DNA of 64,000 bases from Myxococcales bacterium (GTDB lineage: Bacteria; Myxococcota_A; UBA9042; JABWCM01; BTVJ01): positions 32,214 to 96,213 of the forward strand of contig BTVJ01000023.1 of assembly GCA_045863395.1 (NCBI GenBank), in the 5' to 3' direction. Under the pieces are notes generated by a model. It had not been told where the DNA came from and made no database searches. It saw only the letters and a program-made list of their open reading frames with translations. How positions within the stretch are numbered: position 1 is the first letter of the stretch; every line of letters starts with the position of its first letter. Below, piece by piece: positions 16,430 to 64,000 of this stretch. The position numbers and the translations under genes are program-made.

Positions 16430-18511
16430 CTATCGTGCGCCCGCCCCGGGCGTCTGGATGCGTCCGAAGTCGGCGATGTCTGCGAAGAGGGCGCGGATCT
16501 CTCCAAGGAGCGCCAAGCGGTTCTGCCGGACGGCGTCGTCGTCGACCATCACCATGACGTGGTCGAAGAAGGCGTCGACCGCCGGCTTGAGCCCGGCGAG
16601 CGCGCACAGCGCCCCGTCGAAGTCGCAGCAGCCCACCAGGGCCCGGGCCTCGGCGCCGATGCGCCGCGTCTCCGCGAGGAGCGCCCGCTCCTGGTCCGAG
16701 TCCAGCAGATCGGCGTCCGGTCCGTCCGGCCCGATGGGCTGGCCCTTCGTGATGTTCATGACGCGCTTGAAGGCGATGGCCAGGGGCTCGAAGTCCTCCC
16801 GGCTCCGGAGCGCCGACAGCGCCTTGACCTTGGCCACCAGATCCACGAGGACGTCGCCGGGGGTGGCCAGCACCGCTTCGATGACGTCCGTGGCGTGGTC
16901 GCCCTGGAGCAGGCTCCGCAGGCGGCCCCGGAAGAACTCCACCACGTCCTCGGTCACGTCCGCGGCAGGGCGGGTGAGGCGGCCGTCGTAGGCGCCGATG
17001 GCGTGGGCGATCAGGACTCGGAGCGGAAGCGTCCAGCCACGCCCGAGGAAGGTGTGGATGATGCCCAGGGCGCCGCGGCGCAGCGCGTACGGGTCCTGGG
17101 TGCCCGTCGGCAGCAGGCCGAGGCCGAAGCAGCCGACGATGCTGTCGATCTTGTCCGCAACGGCCACGATGGCGCCTGCGTCGCTGGCCGGGACCGCGTC
17201 GCCGGCGAACCGCGGCTGGTAGTGCTCGTAGATGGCGGTCGCGACGGCCTCGGGCTCGCCGGAGTGCTTCGCGTACTCGCGGCCCATGACCCCTTGGAGG
17301 TCCGGGAACTCGCCGACCATGTGGGTCGCGAGATCCGCCTTGCAGAGCAGGGCCGCTCGCTCCGCCAGGGACGCGGCGCCTGGGGCGCAGGCGGCGGCGA
17401 TGGCGCCGGACAGCGCAACCAGGCGCTCCGCCTTCTCGCGGACGGTGCCCAGGCCCGCCAGGAAGATCCGCTGGGACAGGCGCTCCACGTAGTCCTCGAG
17501 GGGGCGCTTCCGGTCCTCGGCGAAGAAGAACTGCGCATCGGACAGGCGCGCCGCCAGGACCCGCTGGTTGCCCCGGGTGACCAGGTCCATGTCCCGCGCA
17601 AGGGTGTTGCTCGCGACCAGGAAGTGGTTCAAGAGGGAGCCGTCGGCCGCCTCGAGCGCGAAGTAGCGCTGGTGGCTGCGCATGGAGGTGACGAGCACCT
17701 CCCGGGGCAGGGCCAGGAAGGCCGGGTCGAAGGTGCCCCGCGTCAGGTGGGGCCACTCGACGAGGTGGGTCACCTCCTCGACGAGGCCCTCGTCGGAGAT
17801 GGCGCGGCCGCCGCCGGCGGAGCCCAGGGTCGCGACCTGCTCTCGGATGAGGCGCCGGCGCTCCTCCGGGTCCACGAGGACGTGGGCCTGCGCAAGGGCG
17901 GCCAGGAGCGCATCGGGGCCCGTGACGGTGATGCCCTGCGGCGCCATGAAGCGGTGGCCGTAGGTGGTGCGCCCGCTCCGCACCCCCGCGAACTCGAAGG
18001 GCACGACTTCAGAGCCGAGCAGCGCCACGATCCAGTGGACGGGGCGCACGAAGGGCTGGCCGCCCCGCCCCCAGCGCATGGCCTTCGGCCAGGGCATGGA
18101 CGCGAGCAGCCGGGGCAGGACCTCGGCGAGCAGGGCGCCCACGGGACGACCCTGCACGTGCTTGCGGGCGGAGACGTAGGGTCCCTTGGGCGTGTCGACC
18201 ACGGACAGGGCGGACAGGTCGACGCCCTCCCGCCGCGCGAAGCCCTCGGCGGCCTTGGTGGGCTGGCCGTCCTTGAAGGCGACGGCGGCCGGCGGGCCGA
18301 GCACGTCCGCGACGATGTCCTCCTGGCGGTCCGGGATGCTCCCGGCGGTCAGGATCAGGCGACGCGGCGTGACTGCCGTGCGCAGGTCGGAGACGGGCAG
18401 GCGCAGGGCCTCGCACTCCTTGCGGAAGCGGGCCTCCAGCTCGGCGACGCCGCCGGGCGCCATGCGGGCCGGGATCTCTTCGGTGCCGACCTCGAGGAGG
18501 AAGGTGGTCAT
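16430..18511 (-). CDS. glyS: Glycine--tRNA ligase beta subunit
   Basis: [61 protein letters not shown]-terminal part of ORF 16430..20377. Confidence 0.97.
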
Positions 18512-56942: not shown

Positions 56943-58382
56943 ATGTGGAGCCCGGATCGGGTAGCGCGTATCGAGAGAGGCGGGGAGCTCGTGGCCGCGG
57001 GCTACGCCATTGGACCGCGGCACGTGCTGACAGCGCGGGCCGCGGTGCAGGGGCGGGAGGGTCTTCGCGTGACCGTGGGGGAGCTCCGAGGCGTGGCAGC
57101 GACGATGGTGTGGCCGAACAACGAGGCCTTCGCGCCGGCTCTGCTGCAAACGGAGGGAGACCTCAAAGTGCCCTTGGACCTCGTTGGGCTCACGGGGCCT
57201 TGGTACTCGGCCGAATTTGCAGAGGTCCACGAGTTGGCGCTGCCTGACCAACCCAAAGGCACGGTCGCAACCACGTCAGGGCCGATGCCCCATGCGGACC
57301 GTGACACCACCTCTGTCTACCTGGAGTGTTGGACGAAGGCAGGCGAATCACAGGCAAGCCTGGGAGCTCCTGTCGTCGTCCGGTCGTCCACCCGATCAGG
57401 GTGCGTCGTGGCCGTGGTCACAGGTTCCGCGCAGCATGGCGATAACGTCGTGGACATGGCGACGCTCACCCGCGCCTTCGCCTGCGATTCCACGTTCGTC
57501 GAGGCGGTTCTCGGAGAGACTGCGGCGAAGCGGCACCAGTCATTCCTCGCCGATCTCGAGGTGAAGGTGTCGAAGACGCTGGGCGCGTCCCGTCCGCTCC
57601 GCGATGCAATGCACCAGACACTTGAAGGGCGGACAGATGGGACGCCGGAGGCGCTCGCCCGCTGGCTCCTTCACAAGGTCAGCGGAGCAGAAACCATCCG
57701 GTGTCTCCACGACGCCTGGAGGGCGGCAGACGAGCCGGCGGTCCGTGGCTTCGCGAGAGACCTGGTCTGTCACCTCCTTCCCGCCAGTCTCGATTGGCGG
57801 AGCCGAGTCTATCAGGCGATGAGCGATCTGTCCGAGATCCCCAGAGCCACTAGAATTGAAGCGCACTCGGTGACGATCGCCGAGGCCATCATGGCAGGCG
57901 CCGAGGCGCGGCCGGTGCGGTTCGCCCCGGTCCAGCACGATGCGGATCTACCGGGGCTGTCGGCCATCATGGCCCCGCCGAACACGATGGTCACGAACTG
58001 GGAGGGTCTGGCGCCGGAGGCCGTAGCCCATGGGGTGCAGCAGATGGGGGCCGATGATCCCGTAACCCTGGTAGAGGAGAGACTGGGTAGGCGCTACGCG
58101 ACCCCGGAGGTGCGGCACAGGAAGCTGGAGGGAGAGCTGAACAGGCGCGCCGAGCGTGGATTGCCCGAGCGGCCGGCGTACTACCTGCTGGTGTCCGACA
58201 TCGCCGCTGATCCCGTTGCGCGCGCCGGCCGGTGGGAGGCATTCGAGCACCAGATGTCGCGGGTCCTCCCGAGCCTCCGTGTCGTGCTCCTCTGGGGCGG
58301 CGAGGGCGTGGACGGCGAGGAGACCATTGCCATTGACTTGAGCAGCATGTTCGCGAGCGGTGAGCAACGACCACGAGGTTGA
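56943..58382 (+). CDS. vWA-MoxR-associated adaptor protein with N-terminal inactive trypsin-like domain
   Basis: GYAIGPRHVLTARAAV / ALL / SLGAPVV trypsin-like pattern without the catalytic triad; immediately upstream of MoxR; GGAGG RBS. Confidence 0.7.
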   Translation: MWSPDRVARIERGGELVAAGYAIGPRHVLTARAAVQGREGLRVTVGELRGVAATMVWPNNEAFAPALLQTEGDLKVPLDLVGLTGPWYSAEFAEVHELALPDQPKGTVATTSGPMPHADRDTTSVYLECWTKAGESQASLGAPVVVRSSTRSGCVVAVVTGSAQHGDNVVDMATLTRAFACDSTFVEAVLGETAAKRHQSFLADLEVKVSKTLGASRPLRDAMHQTLEGRTDGTPEALARWLLHKVSGAETIRCLHDAWRAADEPAVRGFARDLVCHLLPASLDWRSRVYQAMSDLSEIPRATRIEAHSVTIAEAIMAGAEARPVRFAPVQHDADLPGLSAIMAPPNTMVTNWEGLAPEAVAHGVQQMGADDPVTLVEERLGRRYATPEVRHRKLEGELNRRAERGLPERPAYYLLVSDIAADPVARAGRWEAFEHQMSRVLPSLRVVLLWGGEGVDGEETIAIDLSSMFASGEQRPRG

Positions 58383-58385
58383 TAG

Positions 58386-59357
58386 ATGACCGACTTCCTC
58401 CCCGACGACCGCGACCTCGTCATCCCTCTGGAAGCCCGCGGTGGCCTCCCCAAGTCTGTCCACCTCCTCGAGCAGGAGCAGGCGCGGGCCGTCAACGCGG
58501 CCCTCGCCACGGGTCGGCCGCTGCTCGTGCGGGGCCTGCCGGGGACGGGCAAGAGTCAGTTTGCGCGCGCCGCCGCCGAGCAGCTCAGGCGGCCGTTCGT
58601 CGCGACGGTGGTGGACGGGCAGACGGAGACGCGGGACCTGCTCTGGACCGTGGACGCCGTGGCCAGGCTGGCACGCGCGCAGGCCATCGGCGCCATGCGT
58701 CCGCAGAGCCTCCACGAAGTGTCTGAAGAGATCGCACCCGAGAAGTTCGTCCAGCCTGGCGCCCTCTGGTGGGCGTTCGATTGGACGGACGCGGAGAATC
58801 AGGCTGAGCGCGGCGGTCCCGGCGCCTGCCTCAGGGTGGTAGACGGCTTCGACACGACGCGCGGGTGCGTCGTGCTGGTCGACGAGATCGACAAGGCGGA
58901 CGCGACCGTGCCCAACGGGCTCCTCGAGGCGCTCGGGAACGGGAGCTTCAACAAGCCCTTCGGAGGGACGGTGACGATGAACCGGGAGACCCCGCCGCTG
59001 GTCGTCGTCACGACCAATGAGGAGCGCGCCTTGCCGGACGCCTTCCTGCGGCGCTGCTTGGTGCTGCACCTGGAGCTGCCGAAGGGCCGGGGCGAGCGCG
59101 TGCGCTACCTGGCGCTCCGCGGGGAGCAACACTTCGAGGGGAAGTGGGGTCCGCTCGTGCAGGAGGCCGCCGAGCTCGTCGCGGACGATTACGCGGCGGC
59201 CCGGCGGGCGGGGAAGAGCCCCCCAGGCGTCGCGGAGTATATCGATCTCGTCCGGGCAGTGGGCTCGCAGCGCAAGGACGAGGTCGGTCAGCGCGACCTG
59301 CTCAAGTTGGTCAAGCAGTTCGCCCTCGAGAAGCACCCGCGCGAGGAGAGGCCGTGA
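58386..59357 (+). CDS. MoxR-type AAA+ ATPase (conflict-system clade)
   Basis: RPLLVRGLPGTGKS, DLLWTVDAVARL, VVLVDEIDKAD..PNGLL, TTNEERALPDAFLRRC. Confidence 0.93.
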   Translation: MTDFLPDDRDLVIPLEARGGLPKSVHLLEQEQARAVNAALATGRPLLVRGLPGTGKSQFARAAAEQLRRPFVATVVDGQTETRDLLWTVDAVARLARAQAIGAMRPQSLHEVSEEIAPEKFVQPGALWWAFDWTDAENQAERGGPGACLRVVDGFDTTRGCVVLVDEIDKADATVPNGLLEALGNGSFNKPFGGTVTMNRETPPLVVVTTNEERALPDAFLRRCLVLHLELPKGRGERVRYLALRGEQHFEGKWGPLVQEAAELVADDYAAARRAGKSPPGVAEYIDLVRAVGSQRKDEVGQRDLLKLVKQFALEKHPREERP

Positions 59358-62197
59358 CCGCGGCGGCGCCCTCGGCCCGGCAGCTCGGCGCCGTGGGGCG
59401 GGCGGACCTCGCACTGCTCCTCGCGCGGGCGAGTGGCGCAGAGGTGGCCGCACAGGCTGCTTTGCTGGGATATGTGCCCATCCCGGCACCTCCTCGTGCT
59501 CGCGAGCATGGCCGCGCTGCCCCAACGGAGCCCGCCATGCCCCTTGCGGAAGGGCCGGCCGTGGTGGCCGAGGCGTCGTTCCCGCCGGTCCCGCTGCTCC
59601 AGCTCGTCGTGTCAGAGCGCCACCCGGAGGTTGCGGTCGCCCCCACTCCTCTCGAAGAGGCGGCCCCGGCCCGGGAGATCGTGGAACCGGATTCCCGCCG
59701 TACCCTCATCGACGCGCTCCCGGGTCCTCCCCTCGCGCCATGGTCGCGTCTCGAGCCAGTGCTGCGGGCCCTGCTCACGTCGGACGGCGCGGGGCGGGGC
59801 GTGGACGTGCCCGCCGTCGTCCGAAGGCTGGCGCGCGTCGAGGAGCTCTCGCGCCTTCCGCGCCGGCGGGCACGGGGCTTCGTCGGGGCCGTGGAGCTGT
59901 GGGACGACCGCTCGCACCGCGTGGCGCCCTTCCGGCACGACGCCGACCGGGTCCGTGACCGCCTCGAGAAGGTCCTGGGCCGCCACGCCGTGCGTCGGCG
60001 CCTTCTGCCGGAGCGGGACCAGCGCCTCGCGGCCTGGGACCATGGCTCCGTCCTCCCGCCCAACCAGATGCCGGTGGCGGGAACGACCGTGCTCGCGCTG
60101 AGCGACCTGGGCCAGTACGGCGACGGTGCCATGCGGCAGGCTTGGCGCCTGACGGCCGGGGCGCTGCGCAGGCGGGGGGTGCGCGTCTGTGCGCTCACGC
60201 CTGTGCCCCCGCATCGGTGGGACGTGGAGGTCGCCGCGGCGTGGCGCGCGGAGGGTTGGGAGCGCCGCCCGGTCGCTGACGCGCCGGATGCCAGGGTGGA
60301 CGCCCGGGCCGAGCGGCTCCTGGCCCTGTGCGCCGCGAGCGCGTGGACGACCCTGGGCATGCTCCGCGAGCTGCGTCTCGCGCTGCCCGCCGCCGAGGCG
60401 GACGCAGGGACGGAGGCCGACGCCTGGAACCACGCGGACGCTCTGACGGGCTGCGCGGTGGCCCTCGTGGTGGCCGCGCCGGCTCGCGACGCGCTGCGCC
60501 GGCGCTTCGCCGATGAGCCGGCAGCGCTGCGGGACCGGGTCGCCCGCATCGTGGAGGAGCGTCACGCGCGCCTGCACCTGCCGGAGCTGCTGCACGGCGA
60601 GACCCTCGTCTGGCTGCACGGCGGCCTGTGCGGCCAGTCCGGCGACGGCAGCGAGGTGCAGCCGCCCGGCGACGTGGAGCAGGCGCGCGCCCTGGTCCAG
60701 CGCTTCGCCCAGATCGCCCGGACCGGGCGGCTCGATGCCGACGCGGTGGCGCAGGTGGCGTGGTACGCAGCAGAGCTCGTCCCCCAGCTCCCCCCCGAAG
60801 CCCTCGCCGACCCGCACATCGGGCGCCCCCTGTCCGTGCTGGCTGCGCTGGCCACACGGGTGAGCCAGCGCCGGCTCCCAGCGGGCCCGGACCCGGCGAC
60901 CGCGCTCCGTGAACTCGGCGGACCGGAGCCGCCGCCGCCCCGCTGGTGGACCCTCCGCCATGTGGGTGACGCGGTCGTGGCACGACCCGGGCCGGGCCCC
61001 TGGGACGTGCGCTCGCCCCTCGGCGGCTCGCCCCTCGGCGGCATCCAGGCGAGGCTACCGCAGCTCGCCGTCCGCGTGGGCGACGGCCCGGTGATGCTCG
61101 TCGCCCTCGACGGCCCGGACCCGGCCATCCGCCTGCCGAGCGCCGTCCGCGTCGAGCTGGTGTCGGACGTGGAGCGGGTCGTCCTCGACGCACTGGAGTG
61201 CCCGGAGTGGGCCGTCGCGGCGGGCCGGGACCGCTACGGCCTGTGGGCGGACGCAGAGATCCGGGGTGTGGTGCAGCGGTTCCGGTGGGTGCCGCCTGGG
61301 ACGTTCCTGATGGGGTCGCCGGAGAGCGAGGAGGGCCGGGGGGAGAACGAGGGCCCGCAGCACGAGGTGACGTTGACGCGCGGGTACTGGTTGGGGGACA
61401 CGCCGGTGACCCAGGCGCTGTGGGAGGCGGTGCGAGGCAGGCAAGCAAACGGGAGTCGCTTTCAGTCCCCGAGTCGGCCTGTTGTGAAAGTTTCTTGGTA
61501 CAAATGCTATGCCTTCTTGAGAGAGTGCGCACGGTTGGCGCCTCAGCTCGCGGCGCGCCTGCCAACTGAGTTCGAATGGGAGTACGCGTGCCGCGCTGGC
61601 GCATCGACAGCCACGTGGCTCGGCGATCTCGACATTCGGGGCGAACACGATGCCCCGCTCCTCGACCGGATCGCTTGGTACGGCGGCAACTGCGGTCGGG
61701 ACTTCATGCTGGCCGATGGGTACGACATCCGCCCCAAGCGCGAGCGACAGTACAACGACGCATTTGGTGGTACGCACGATGTGGCTGGCAAGGCGCCAAA
61801 TCCGCTCGGGCTGTTCGACATGCTCGGAAACGTCTGGGAGTGGTGTTCGGGCTGGCTAACCCAGTACAACGCCACGGCATCCACGGACCCCACCGACACC
61901 ACCACTGGGACAGGGAAGGTTCTACGTGGAGGGGCTTGGCTCGATGCGGCCAGGAACGTTCGGGCGGCGAGCCGGGGCTGGAGCGACCCAGGTTACGGGA
62001 GCAAGGACACAGGTTTCCGCCTGGCCCGAGGTCACGTCCCGGCGGGGCAGGGGCCGGCGGCGCGGACGATGCCCCCCGCGGAGGGCGAGCGGAGCGTTCC
62101 GGGGGCGGGGGGCGGCGTTCGCGCTCCCGGCGGTGGAGGCACAGCGGCGCCTCGGACGAAGCGCCGCCCGGCGACTGATCCGAGGCGAGGGCACTGA
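59354..62197 (+). CDS. vWA-like domain protein fused to C-terminal FGE-sulfatase (CLec-fold) domain
   Basis: GTGA overlap with MoxR; GRADL, DDRSHRVAPF, LALSDLG; FLMGSP, PVTQALW, RLPTEFEWEYACRAG, GNVWEW, RGGAW..GFRLA. Confidence 0.88.
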   Translation: MTAAAPSARQLGAVGRADLALLLARASGAEVAAQAALLGYVPIPAPPRAREHGRAAPTEPAMPLAEGPAVVAEASFPPVPLLQLVVSERHPEVAVAPTPLEEAAPAREIVEPDSRRTLIDALPGPPLAPWSRLEPVLRALLTSDGAGRGVDVPAVVRRLARVEELSRLPRRRARGFVGAVELWDDRSHRVAPFRHDADRVRDRLEKVLGRHAVRRRLLPERDQRLAAWDHGSVLPPNQMPVAGTTVLALSDLGQYGDGAMRQAWRLTAGALRRRGVRVCALTPVPPHRWDVEVAAAWRAEGWERRPVADAPDARVDARAERLLALCAASAWTTLGMLRELRLALPAAEADAGTEADAWNHADALTGCAVALVVAAPARDALRRRFADEPAALRDRVARIVEERHARLHLPELLHGETLVWLHGGLCGQSGDGSEVQPPGDVEQARALVQRFAQIARTGRLDADAVAQVAWYAAELVPQLPPEALADPHIGRPLSVLAALATRVSQRRLPAGPDPATALRELGGPEPPPPRWWTLRHVGDAVVARPGPGPWDVRSPLGGSPLGGIQARLPQLAVRVGDGPVMLVALDGPDPAIRLPSAVRVELVSDVERVVLDALECPEWAVAAGRDRYGLWADAEIRGVVQRFRWVPPGTFLMGSPESEEGRGENEGPQHEVTLTRGYWLGDTPVTQALWEAVRGRQANGSRFQSPSRPVVKVSWYKCYAFLRECARLAPQLAARLPTEFEWEYACRAGASTATWLGDLDIRGEHDAPLLDRIAWYGGNCGRDFMLADGYDIRPKRERQYNDAFGGTHDVAGKAPNPLGLFDMLGNVWEWCSGWLTQYNATASTDPTDTTTGTGKVLRGGAWLDAARNVRAASRGWSDPGYGSKDTGFRLARGHVPAGQGPAARTMPPAEGERSVPGAGGGVRAPGGGGTAAPRTKRRPATDPRRGH
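62060..62124. repeat. Imperfect inverted repeat (hairpin A) downstream of the first CLec variable-like region
   Basis: GCGCGGACGATGCCCCCCGC ... GCGGGGGGCGGCGTTCGCGC. Confidence 0.7.
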
Positions 62198-63042
62198 TGG
62201 CACGGATGATCGACACAGTGCCTGGGCCGCCCGCTCTGCCTGCCGGCCCGCTTCTGCCCCCAGGCCGCCACCCGCTGGCCCCTGGGCTCCCCGAGCCTTG
62301 GGCCGCGGAGTGGGGGCAGGACCGCTACGGTGTCTTCACGGCCTTCGCGGTCGGCGACGTGGTTCAGCGCTTGCGGTGGGTTCCCCCCGGCACGTTCCTG
62401 ATGGGCTCGCCCGAGGGCGAGGAGGGGCGGCGGGACCTCGAAGGACCTCGGAGCCCCGTCACGCTCACGCGCGGCCTGTGGATGGGCGAGACCCCGGTGA
62501 CGCAGGCCCTGTGGAGGGGGGTCATGGACCACAATCCGAGCAGGTTTGAAGAGGACGGAAGGCAGCGACCTGTCGAGTGCGTGAGCTGGGACGACTGCCA
62601 GCACTTCCTAGAGCGGCTCCACCGGGTCGTGCCCGGCCTGCAGCCCCGCCTGCCGACGGAAGCCGAGTGGGAGCGCGCCTGCCGGGCGGGAACGGATGGC
62701 GCGCGCTACGGGAGGCTCGACGAAATCGCGTGGCACGACGGGAACTCCGGCAATGGGACCCGCTCGGTGAAACAGCGGCTTCCGAACGCCCTCGGGCTGT
62801 ACGACATCCTCGGCAACGTGTGGGAGTGGTGCTCGGACTGCCTCGGTCCGTACCCACCAGGCCCTCGGGTCGACCCGGCCAGCGTCTCTCCGGGCTCGAG
62901 GCGGGTCATCCGGGGCGGCTCCTGGAGCAACCCGGCCGGGAACGTCCGGGCGGCCTACCGGAGCGGGTACCCGCCCGGGTTCCGGTTCGAGTTCCTGGGC
63001 TTCCGGCTCGCCCGAGGTCACGACCAGCAGGCCAGCCAGTAG
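62197..63042 (+). CDS. Stand-alone FGE-sulfatase (SUMF1/CLec-fold) domain protein
   Basis: TGATG overlap; GQDRYG, FLMGSP, RLPTEAEWERACRAG, GNVWEW, RGGSW...GFRLA; lacks FGE catalytic cysteines in the C-terminal segment. Confidence 0.92.
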   Translation: MARMIDTVPGPPALPAGPLLPPGRHPLAPGLPEPWAAEWGQDRYGVFTAFAVGDVVQRLRWVPPGTFLMGSPEGEEGRRDLEGPRSPVTLTRGLWMGETPVTQALWRGVMDHNPSRFEEDGRQRPVECVSWDDCQHFLERLHRVVPGLQPRLPTEAEWERACRAGTDGARYGRLDEIAWHDGNSGNGTRSVKQRLPNALGLYDILGNVWEWCSDCLGPYPPGPRVDPASVSPGSRRVIRGGSWSNPAGNVRAAYRSGYPPGFRFEFLGFRLARGHDQQASQ

Positions 63043-63045
63043 GCG

Positions 63046-63110
63046 GCGCAGACGACGGCCCCAGCGGAGGGCCAGCGGAGCGGCCCGGAGCCTGGGGCCG
63101 TCGTTCGCGC
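63046..63110. repeat. Inverted repeat (hairpin B) downstream of the second CLec gene, homologous to hairpin A
   Basis: Perfect 13-bp core ACGACGGCCCCAG (63052-63064) / CTGGGGCCGTCGT (63092-63104); a second 8-bp stem CGGTCGAG/CTCGACCG at 63117-63145. Confidence 0.8.
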
Positions 63111-63283
63111 CGCCCCCGGTCGAGTCTGCTCGGGCGCCTCGACCGCCCGTTTCCAGGCATCCGCCCGTACGCGACCCCCGAGAAGACTCCCCCCGCTGAA
63201 TCCCCGTGGTTGTCCGTGACGGCTGTTGAACCAATGAGCGCTCTCCCGAACCGCACCAGCGGACCGGACCATCACCCAACGCG

Positions 63284-64000
63284 CTACTTCGCCATCCGCC
63301 TGTACCGAGCAACCTTGGCGATGCCCTGCATCCTCAGCTCGTCCCCGAGACCCTGCGCCGTAAGGCCGAGCTTGCGGGCTGCCGCGGTGACGTCTCCTCC
63401 ACACTCCGTCCACGCCGCTCGCAGCGCCTCAGCACTGACCGTGTCCCCGGCCTCTCGCAGAATCTCGCGACGCTGGAGCTCCCTGCGGAGCTGCCCCACG
63501 CTGACGACGATTCCATGCTTCATCTGCAGGCGGTCCACGGTCGCGGCCAGCGAGCGGCCCGGGTCGCGCTCCTCCCATCTCTCCTCGAACAGAGACTCGA
63601 TCTCTGCGCGGTCCAGGTCAACGAGCCCCTTCGATGGCCGCTCGGGTCCTCCGCACGACACCCCCTCGTCTCGGCCCGGCGACGGGGTCTCGCAGAAGGC
63701 CTCCGGCGCGGGCATGGCCCGCGTCCCTCCGAACTCCACCTGCGCGTCCGGGTTCCTCTCGAGAGCGTGGCGATTGAAGGTCCAGAGCCACTCGGCGGCC
63801 GCCCGGAGCTGCCGCACGTTGAGTGGCCAGTCGTAGCGCAGGAGCCGGCACAACAGCTCCGGGGGAACCAGAGGGCTCTCGCGGGAGGTGAGGCGGCCCA
63901 CGTCATACCCCGAGGAGGATGCCGCCTGCCGCAGGAAGTGCCAGAATGTTGACGCGCATCGGAAACCGCGCAAATCACAGCACGCCGGAGGGGGACTGGC
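63284..64000 (-). CDS. C-terminal part of a sigma54-dependent activator-like (bEBP/Fis-HTH) protein, truncated by the window edge
   Basis: HFL, LLRYDWPLNVRQL (sensor II-like), GGDVTAAARKLGL Fis-type HTH; frame open to window end. Confidence 0.75.
   Translation of the reverse strand, partial: ASPPPACCDLRGFRCASTFWHFLRQAASSSGYDVGRLTSRESPLVPPELLCRLLRYDWPLNVRQLRAAAEWLWTFNRHALERNPDAQVEFGGTRAMPAPEAFCETPSPGRDEGVSCGGPERPSKGLVDLDRAEIESLFEERWEERDPGRSLAATVDRLQMKHGIVVSVGQLRRELQRREILREAGDTVSAEALRAAWTECGGDVTAAARKLGLTAQGLGDELRMQGIAKVARYRRMAK

Follow-up and report, generated by a model that had tools for sequence, protein, structure and literature searches.

A probable target-site signal of diversity-generating retroelements, a homing motif followed by a GGA-capped hairpin, at two CLec genes of a Myxococcales bacterium

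Two adjacent genes in a 64,000-nt stretch of DNA from a Myxococcales bacterium (contig BTVJ01000023.1; hereafter the window) end in CLec domains, and each domain is followed by the same composite element, a 13-bp motif and a long hairpin, which we analyze here as a probable target-site signal of a diversity-generating retroelement (DGR). All features described in the window lie on the + strand. The locus comprises, in order, an unannotated gene for a 479-amino acid (aa) protein (56943-58382), a gene for a MoxR-like AAA+ ATPase (58386..59357; Pfam AAA_5, E = 4.8e-9, above the cut-off), directly downstream of it a long CLec target gene (gene 1, 59354..62197), and a short CLec-only target gene (gene 2, 62197..63042, 281 aa). 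Gene 1 combines an unannotated N-terminus with a C-terminal FGE-sulfatase (CLec) domain (PF03781, residues 645-892), and its stop codon overlaps the start codon of gene 2 (TGATG). In gene 2 the Pfam domain (PF03781) spans residues 61-273 and the stop codon is the TAG at 63040-63042. The assembly that contains the window (denoted G000; 8.8 Mb, 71% GC, 97% complete, 186 contigs) has 39 FGE-sulfatase matches and 4 reverse transcriptase (RT) matches in total.

Both CLec coding regions end in an identical 13-mer, GCCCGAGGTCACG (62024..62036 and 63010..63022), as a first-pass annotation of the sequence had claimed. In frame the 13-mer reads GCC CGA GGT CAC, and the two codons singled out by that annotation as unusual are indeed rare in long reading frames with high GC content at third codon positions (GC3), where CGA accounts for 7.7% of Arg and GGT for 8.6% of Gly codons. 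There are four occurrences of the 13-mer in the 8.8-Mb genome, and the two outside the window pair have unrelated contexts. The spacer between the 13-mer and the collinear sequence that follows is exactly 19 nt in both copies, the length first reported. Identity between copy 1 and copy 2 is 57% in the upstream coding sequence, 61% in the variable repeat (VR), 86% in the region of the 13-mer, 58% in the spacer, 78% in the hairpin and 50% downstream. Since translation covers only one of the two copies, constraint on the encoded protein is unlikely.

The hairpin of copy 1 (62056..62128) lies within gene 1, whose C-terminal tail coding sequence runs through it to the gene end at 62197, while the hairpin of copy 2 (63042..63114) begins at the last base of the gene 2 TAG, in agreement with the original description of one translated copy and one past the stop. 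The originally proposed stem of 19-20 bp is real, although slightly longer: with G-T pairs counted, 21 of 23 outer positions pair in copy 1 and 22 of 23 in copy 2. The loop, first described as conserved, is common to the two copies but is not open, as it contains an inner stem tipped by GC-GGA-GC (GCGGAGC at 62089-62095 and 63075-63081), with one further CGGAG in copy 1 and two flanking CGGAG in copy 2. Two outer pairs are changed on both sides between the copies (G-C/C-G and A-T/C-G), two vary on one side with pairing retained, and three form in only one of the copies. When both regions were folded as DNA, copy 2 reached a z-score of −5.5 and copy 1 only −2.2. The exact 17-nt loop did not hold up beyond this genome: across 400 other genomes of the phylum it has 12 matches against 12 control matches, none near a CLec gene. 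It is private to this genome, and we reject it as a conserved motif. A smaller second inverted repeat follows each main hairpin (62146-62169 and 63118-63144), and these two repeats are unrelated to each other. A scan of 61900-63300 against Rfam returned no family, only two weak miRNA matches at chance level (E > 5). We also considered an intrinsic terminator and rejected it (0 sites, no U-tract after the stem).

The position of the 13-mer can be compared with that of the homing signal in intact relatives. Relatives were taken from loci among the matches listed in scans of two collections, plus genome searches, which gave 352 distinct CLec-like ends from loci L005-L345 (L198-L212 left out). A template repeat (TR) match at adenines was found for 32 of the 352 ends, 28 of them in the window's clade, defined as at least 280 bits. 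Homology to the TR ends at +19 in 20/28 clade targets and between +18 and +20 in 25/28. With the boundary marked by a slash, targets read GCCCGAG/GTCA or close variants and templates read GCCCGAG/C; GCCCGAGGTCA is the commonest or joint-commonest 11-mer at the clade-target boundary. As TR/VR homology in intact clade DGRs ends inside the 13-mer, the 13-mer corresponds to the initiation of mutagenic homing site (IMH) and straddles the IMH/IMH* boundary. For the window this assignment is made by homology to the clade targets, and the predicted TR/VR boundaries fall after 62030 and after 63016.

Intact clade loci are arranged as long target, HRDC, RT, TR and short target. Among the core loci of the clade that were checked, HRDC is present in 9/9, Avd in 0/9 and RT in 7/9. 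One contig, G148:C36, carries two adjacent targets without a core, like the window, and these match a TR on G148:C82 with 12 differences at adenines and 0 elsewhere for one target, and 11 and 2 for the other. The spacer after the TR in L244, L247, L248, L252 and L258 looks conserved, with two hairpins and an A-rich stretch, and is a candidate priming RNA structure for DGRs that lack Avd.

Downstream of the clade boundary we find a strand-specific enrichment of short hairpins with a GGA loop. Hairpins were counted between +18 and +200 as perfect stems of at least 3 bp around GGA; ends with less than 120 nt downstream were dropped, and the window's own copies were placed in the unmatched groups. 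The 27 TR-matched targets contain 67 GGA hairpins versus 4.4 in shuffled sequences, with 1 on the opposite strand and 2 with a GAA loop, and at least one GGA hairpin is found in 21/27. The 90 clade ends lacking a TR match contain 69 (7.9 shuffled), the 163 more distant CLec ends 14 (11.7 shuffled) and the 31 most distant 1 (1.6 shuffled), and the regions downstream of 20 TRs contain 2 (1.5 shuffled). Counted by independent TR system, the motif follows the target in 13/16 and the TR in 2/16. Stems of at least 4 bp, built from 11 different arms, surround 47 of 69 CGGAG motifs (genome background, 1.8%). The clade stems do not align with each other, and 44/136 clade hairpins lie past the stop codon. 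Most clade targets carry arrays of short GGA hairpins, up to 5-7. Conservation between genomes concerns the GGA triloop rather than the long stem, and the window element is the long-stem form of the clade GGA signal.

Within G000 the element is confined to CLec genes. A profile of both copies (nhmmer, whole genome) has three matches with E ≤ 1e-13, the next match having E = 3.2, and 3/3 copies directly follow CLec ends, which bears out for this genome the suggestion that such elements sit specifically 3' of CLec genes. The third copy (G000:C97:614-687; 74 nt identical to copy 2) follows a 5'-truncated paralogue of gene 2. A dispersed repeat of the repetitive extragenic palindrome type or the miniature inverted-repeat transposable element (MITE) type was considered and rejected, with only 3 copies present, all after CLec ends. 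In a DNA search of the order (3 genomes), matches outside G000 were to coding regions only. Long stems around GCGNAGC occur genome-wide at control level when 15/18 pairs are required (30/18,206 sites vs 35/27,577 control sites); at 16/18 pairs or more there are 7 loci, 5 of them after CLec ends, the control having been scored at 15/18 only.

The truncated paralogue shows further peculiarities. Its 5' end is cut by a 51-nt sequence (G000:C97:1-51) that recurs at the start of C17 and partly at C78 and is possibly the end of an insertion element. The gene has one change in the IMH, its stop is read through, and its copy of the element diverges before the position of the second small inverted repeat.

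Several other loci of G000 carry CLec genes with DGR features. What appears to be an intact DGR of another clade occupies G000:C33:45128-52700 (L003, L010). It has a 1228-aa CLec target, HRDC, Avd and an RT containing YMDD; the TR lies some 1.5 kb beyond the RT and shows 11 differences, all at A. Downstream of this target is a long hairpin with a perfect stem, capped by GCGAAGC. DGR-type variation and a common long hairpin are seen in three CLec paralogues located at contig ends (C32:108-782, C18:165-848 and C162:5601-6284), and this hairpin continues into the start of C68 (C68:1-938), where a truncated RT ends in an Avd-like stretch. A TR for this group was looked for in G000 and was not found. 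The locus at G000:C47:10490-11456, a CLec gene with an internal stop, a long hairpin decorated with GGA and GCA, a partial TR and no RT nearby, is a decayed DGR.

The VR of gene 2 (62914..62997) comprises the 28 codons before Gly-Phe-Arg. Compared with the paralogue on C97, these last 28 codons differ at codon positions 1, 2 and 3 by 7, 9 and 1 changes, as against 22, 18 and 34 in the 142 codons upstream. Fifteen of 16 differences fall in adenine columns, defined as columns in which at least half of 16 related clade TRs carry adenine (22 of 81 nt tested; P = 3e-10). As judged from this sequence comparison, the adenine-position variation is the fingerprint of a DGR. The equivalent region of gene 1 (61940..62011) has 31 differences from the gene 2 VR over 81 nt.

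Published target hairpins share parts of this arrangement. In the DGR of the Bordetella phage BPP-1, a GC-rich inverted repeat lies just 3' of the IMH and is absent after the TR, and its stem varies while its loop is constant (Guo et al. 2011, PMC3240598). The window stem starts 25 nt after the predicted boundary, within the 4-34 bp reported there (PMC3240598). BPP-1-type hairpins are described in that paper as one perfect stem of 7-10 bp with a GRNA tetraloop, in which long insertions reduce activity (PMC3240598), whereas the window stem is 23 pairs long, imperfect, bulged and tipped by a GGA triloop, and so falls outside the BPP-1-type definition. The MyDGR hairpin rule, as given in its description (PMC6602519), would miss the GGA hairpins of the window and the clade; with standard rules, a target hairpin is reported for only about one DGR in three (127/372; PMC5758913). 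Nanoarchaeal DGRs of DUSEL4 have a three-base G-R-A loop, and their hairpin can sit within the target reading frame (Paul et al. 2015, PMC4372165). Those hairpins are archaeal with GRA loops per DGR; the ones described here are bacterial, almost strictly GGA (67 GGA vs 2 GAA), and multiplied or placed on a long stem. Target hairpins with a GRNA tetraloop and an archaeal GRA triloop are already published, and the GGA arrays and the long GGA-capped stem would be the new form. We found no account of either at DGR targets in the papers searched, although supplements (Wu 2018, Dore 2024) could hold such annotations.

By gene layout the locus resembles the DGR-associated Clade 5A MoxR conflict loci, in which a MoxR ATPase is followed immediately by a long target whose N-terminus is unannotated, and a short CLec-only target is also present (Dore et al. 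2024, PMC10907252). That report also describes clade 5A loci without RT or TR, as well as targeting in trans (PMC10907252). The window differs from clade 5A loci in that neither the locus nor the rest of the assembly has an RT or TR of the window's CLec clade. The word 'hairpin' does not occur in the main text of the journal version, and the preprint uses it once, for MITE-like repeats (PMC10907252). Finally, the 7-mer GCGGAGC is identical to that of the promoter of the virion RNA polymerase of phage N4, which is likewise strand-specific and is read by protein on single-stranded DNA (PMC13037366). In the window the context is a retroelement target, unlike N4, and no link to a polymerase or primase is shown.

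We consider it likely that the window element, an IMH followed by a GCGGAGC-capped hairpin, is a DGR target-site signal on the two CLec targets. A number of results weigh against this conclusion or narrow it. The counts overstate independence, given that the targets are related to each other and that two of the 28 TR matches use the TR of another genome. Six of 27 TR-matched targets have no GGA hairpin with a stem of at least 3 bp, and 58/92 translated hairpins are in one common reading frame. Only a minority of clade ends have the long-stem form (3/27 TR-matched and 12/88 unmatched, the window's two included); among other CLec ends it occurs at 6/190, four of these from the window's genome. 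The GGA tips in the window consist of 2 perfect pairs followed by an A-G mismatch, are not counted under the rule of at least 3 bp, and are a variant, not typical of the counted clade hairpin class. A similar long hairpin decorated with GGA lies in a transposase-like gene on G000:C27, so the architecture of copy 2 is not exclusive to DGR targets. In this C27 hairpin (16730-16815), which lies in the 5' part of the gene, CGGAG, GCGGAGC and CGGAG are arranged as in copy 2; the gene is IS3-like by eye. The compensatory stem changes put forward initially do exist at two pairs, but the covariation is not significant, being reached in 55/500 shuffles with only two independent stems; selection on the IMH and hairpin appears better shown by the identity profile of the two copies.

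The remaining points against concern activity. The gene 1 VR lacks the adenine-specific signature: 13 of its 31 differences from the gene 2 VR are at non-adenine columns, hence the two VRs were not rewritten from one template. A pattern search and an adenine-tolerant scan of the assembly found no TR for the VR of gene 1, gene 2 or the C97 paralogue, and the same scan recovered the TR on C33 (11 A, 0 other), which indicates that the method works. No RT, HRDC or TR of the clade type is present in the assembly (97% complete in 186 contigs, so this is not proof of absence). TR-like contigs are missing among the matches listed from 8 sequencing runs (contigs filtered), and the VR alleles are unchanged in the covering pieces of X2-X5 and X8, which come from three studies, although rare variants are lost from contigs. 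The two targets are probably orphaned and probably no longer rewritten. Of the initial proposal of an element for mutagenic homing, a cis-element of DGR targets is thus well supported, whereas current homing is not, with no cognate TR or RT in the assembly.

A hairpin acting in the transcript of the target genes, as a stabilizer, processing or pause site that adjoins the IMH by coincidence, would account for the location on the coding strand and for G-T wobbles that favor folding of that strand; the top strand folds better in 79/115 clade ends with RNA parameters and in 87/115 with DNA parameters. We regard this as improbable, given the missing U-tract and terminators, the position of copy 1 inside a reading frame coupled to gene 2, and an enrichment that follows the DGR target clade and not CLec genes generally; GNA mini-hairpins are moreover stable as DNA, related RNA hairpins being much weaker (PMC13037366). 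A simple by-product of paralogue ancestry, of the conserved peptide GFRLARG, of Ala-Glu-rich tails and of chance hairpins in 71% GC DNA has the lowest probability that we assign. The 13-mer does encode conserved residues, the copy 1 z-score is modest, long stems are at chance level genome-wide at the 15/18 threshold, and translated hairpins show a frame bias. Yet the IMH (86%) and the hairpin (78%) exceed the flanking coding sequence (57-61%) with only one copy translated, rare codons are kept, 44/136 clade hairpins are untranslated and there is no single frame, and the enrichment is strand-specific and 15-fold over shuffles. Clade statistics have already largely refuted this explanation.

That the element is a site of recombination or mobility, by which CLec cassettes are moved or exchanged as at a MITE, an insertion sequence relic or a swap point, seems to us improbable, to about the same degree as the transcript hairpin. 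This reading draws on the comparison of gene 2 with the C97 paralogue, which are 82% identical upstream yet share 74 identical nt of hairpin, and on same-locus pairs, most of which are at least as similar downstream as in the upstream coding sequence, although purifying selection explains high downstream identity equally well. DGR loci are reported to contain MITE-like hairpins (PMC10907252) and a hairpin of like shape lies inside the transposase-like gene, but the element has only 3 copies at a fixed distance from the IMH, and between genomes the stems are unrelated while the loop is constant. One X2 contig links C97-type alleles to the window's downstream DNA; this join is a single low-depth contig over the 74-nt shared repeat and likely an assembly path. 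For the swapping of CLec cassettes, the other function raised at the outset, we found no specific evidence.

Taking the element as a DGR target-site signal, a mechanism on single-stranded DNA can be proposed, and we give its details roughly even odds. The hairpin would fold when the coding strand is single-stranded, as lagging-strand template or during transcription, and the folded hairpin would hold the neighboring VR open beside the annealing IMH end of the cDNA. The mutagenized cDNA, complementary to the coding strand, would pair from the IMH upstream, and a protein of the DGR or of the host may bind the GGA hairpins. Since loops stay constant whereas stems vary, the GGA loop is probably recognized by its sequence in addition to its structure. 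Efficient homing has been reported to need a hairpin 3' of the IMH, with the stem acting as structure and the loop as sequence (PMC3240598), and to be favored when the cDNA-complementary strand is the lagging-strand template, the hairpin being proposed to prolong the open state (PMC12875486). As a DNA mini-hairpin, GCGNAGC is described as unusually stable, with weaker counterparts among related RNA hairpins, and as readable by proteins; SSB binding to a related mini-hairpin is poor (PMC13037366). As to history, a core between the two targets may have been lost or may never have been present, and the targets would have been diversified in trans or earlier, with gene 1 having drifted most. More speculatively, and in our judgment with the chances clearly against it, HRDC-type DGRs without Avd may recognize their targets, remote ones included, through a protein-read code of GCGGAGC single-stranded DNA mini-hairpins on the coding strand, with loops borne either by short hairpins in arrays or by a single long stem with bulges, and with HRDC as the reader. 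The role of HRDC is a guess from co-occurrence.

The surroundings of the element add some detail. Pfam and NCBIfam searches with the 479-aa product of the gene at 56943-58382, upstream of the MoxR ATPase gene, gave no credible match; by eye its N-terminus is trypsin-like, with the catalytic His seemingly missing. GC3 is 0.73 in the CLec domain of gene 1 (61200-62000) and 0.87 in gene 2, and this lower value suggests a different origin or longer drift of the gene 1 domain. The sources named for CLec homologues are Myxococcota and Acidobacteriota, and DNA of the window is present in sludge and bioreactor sequencing runs.

The window is itself probably inactive and is of value because it adds a further structural variant of the signal. 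How DGR cDNA locates and enters its target could be probed precisely, and by mutation, through a GGA-triloop signal that is clade-wide and strand-specific and whose stems vary freely. The HRDC accessory protein may have the GGA hairpin as its ligand, and remote or orphan targets with no RT nearby may be recognizable by the signal in their sequence.

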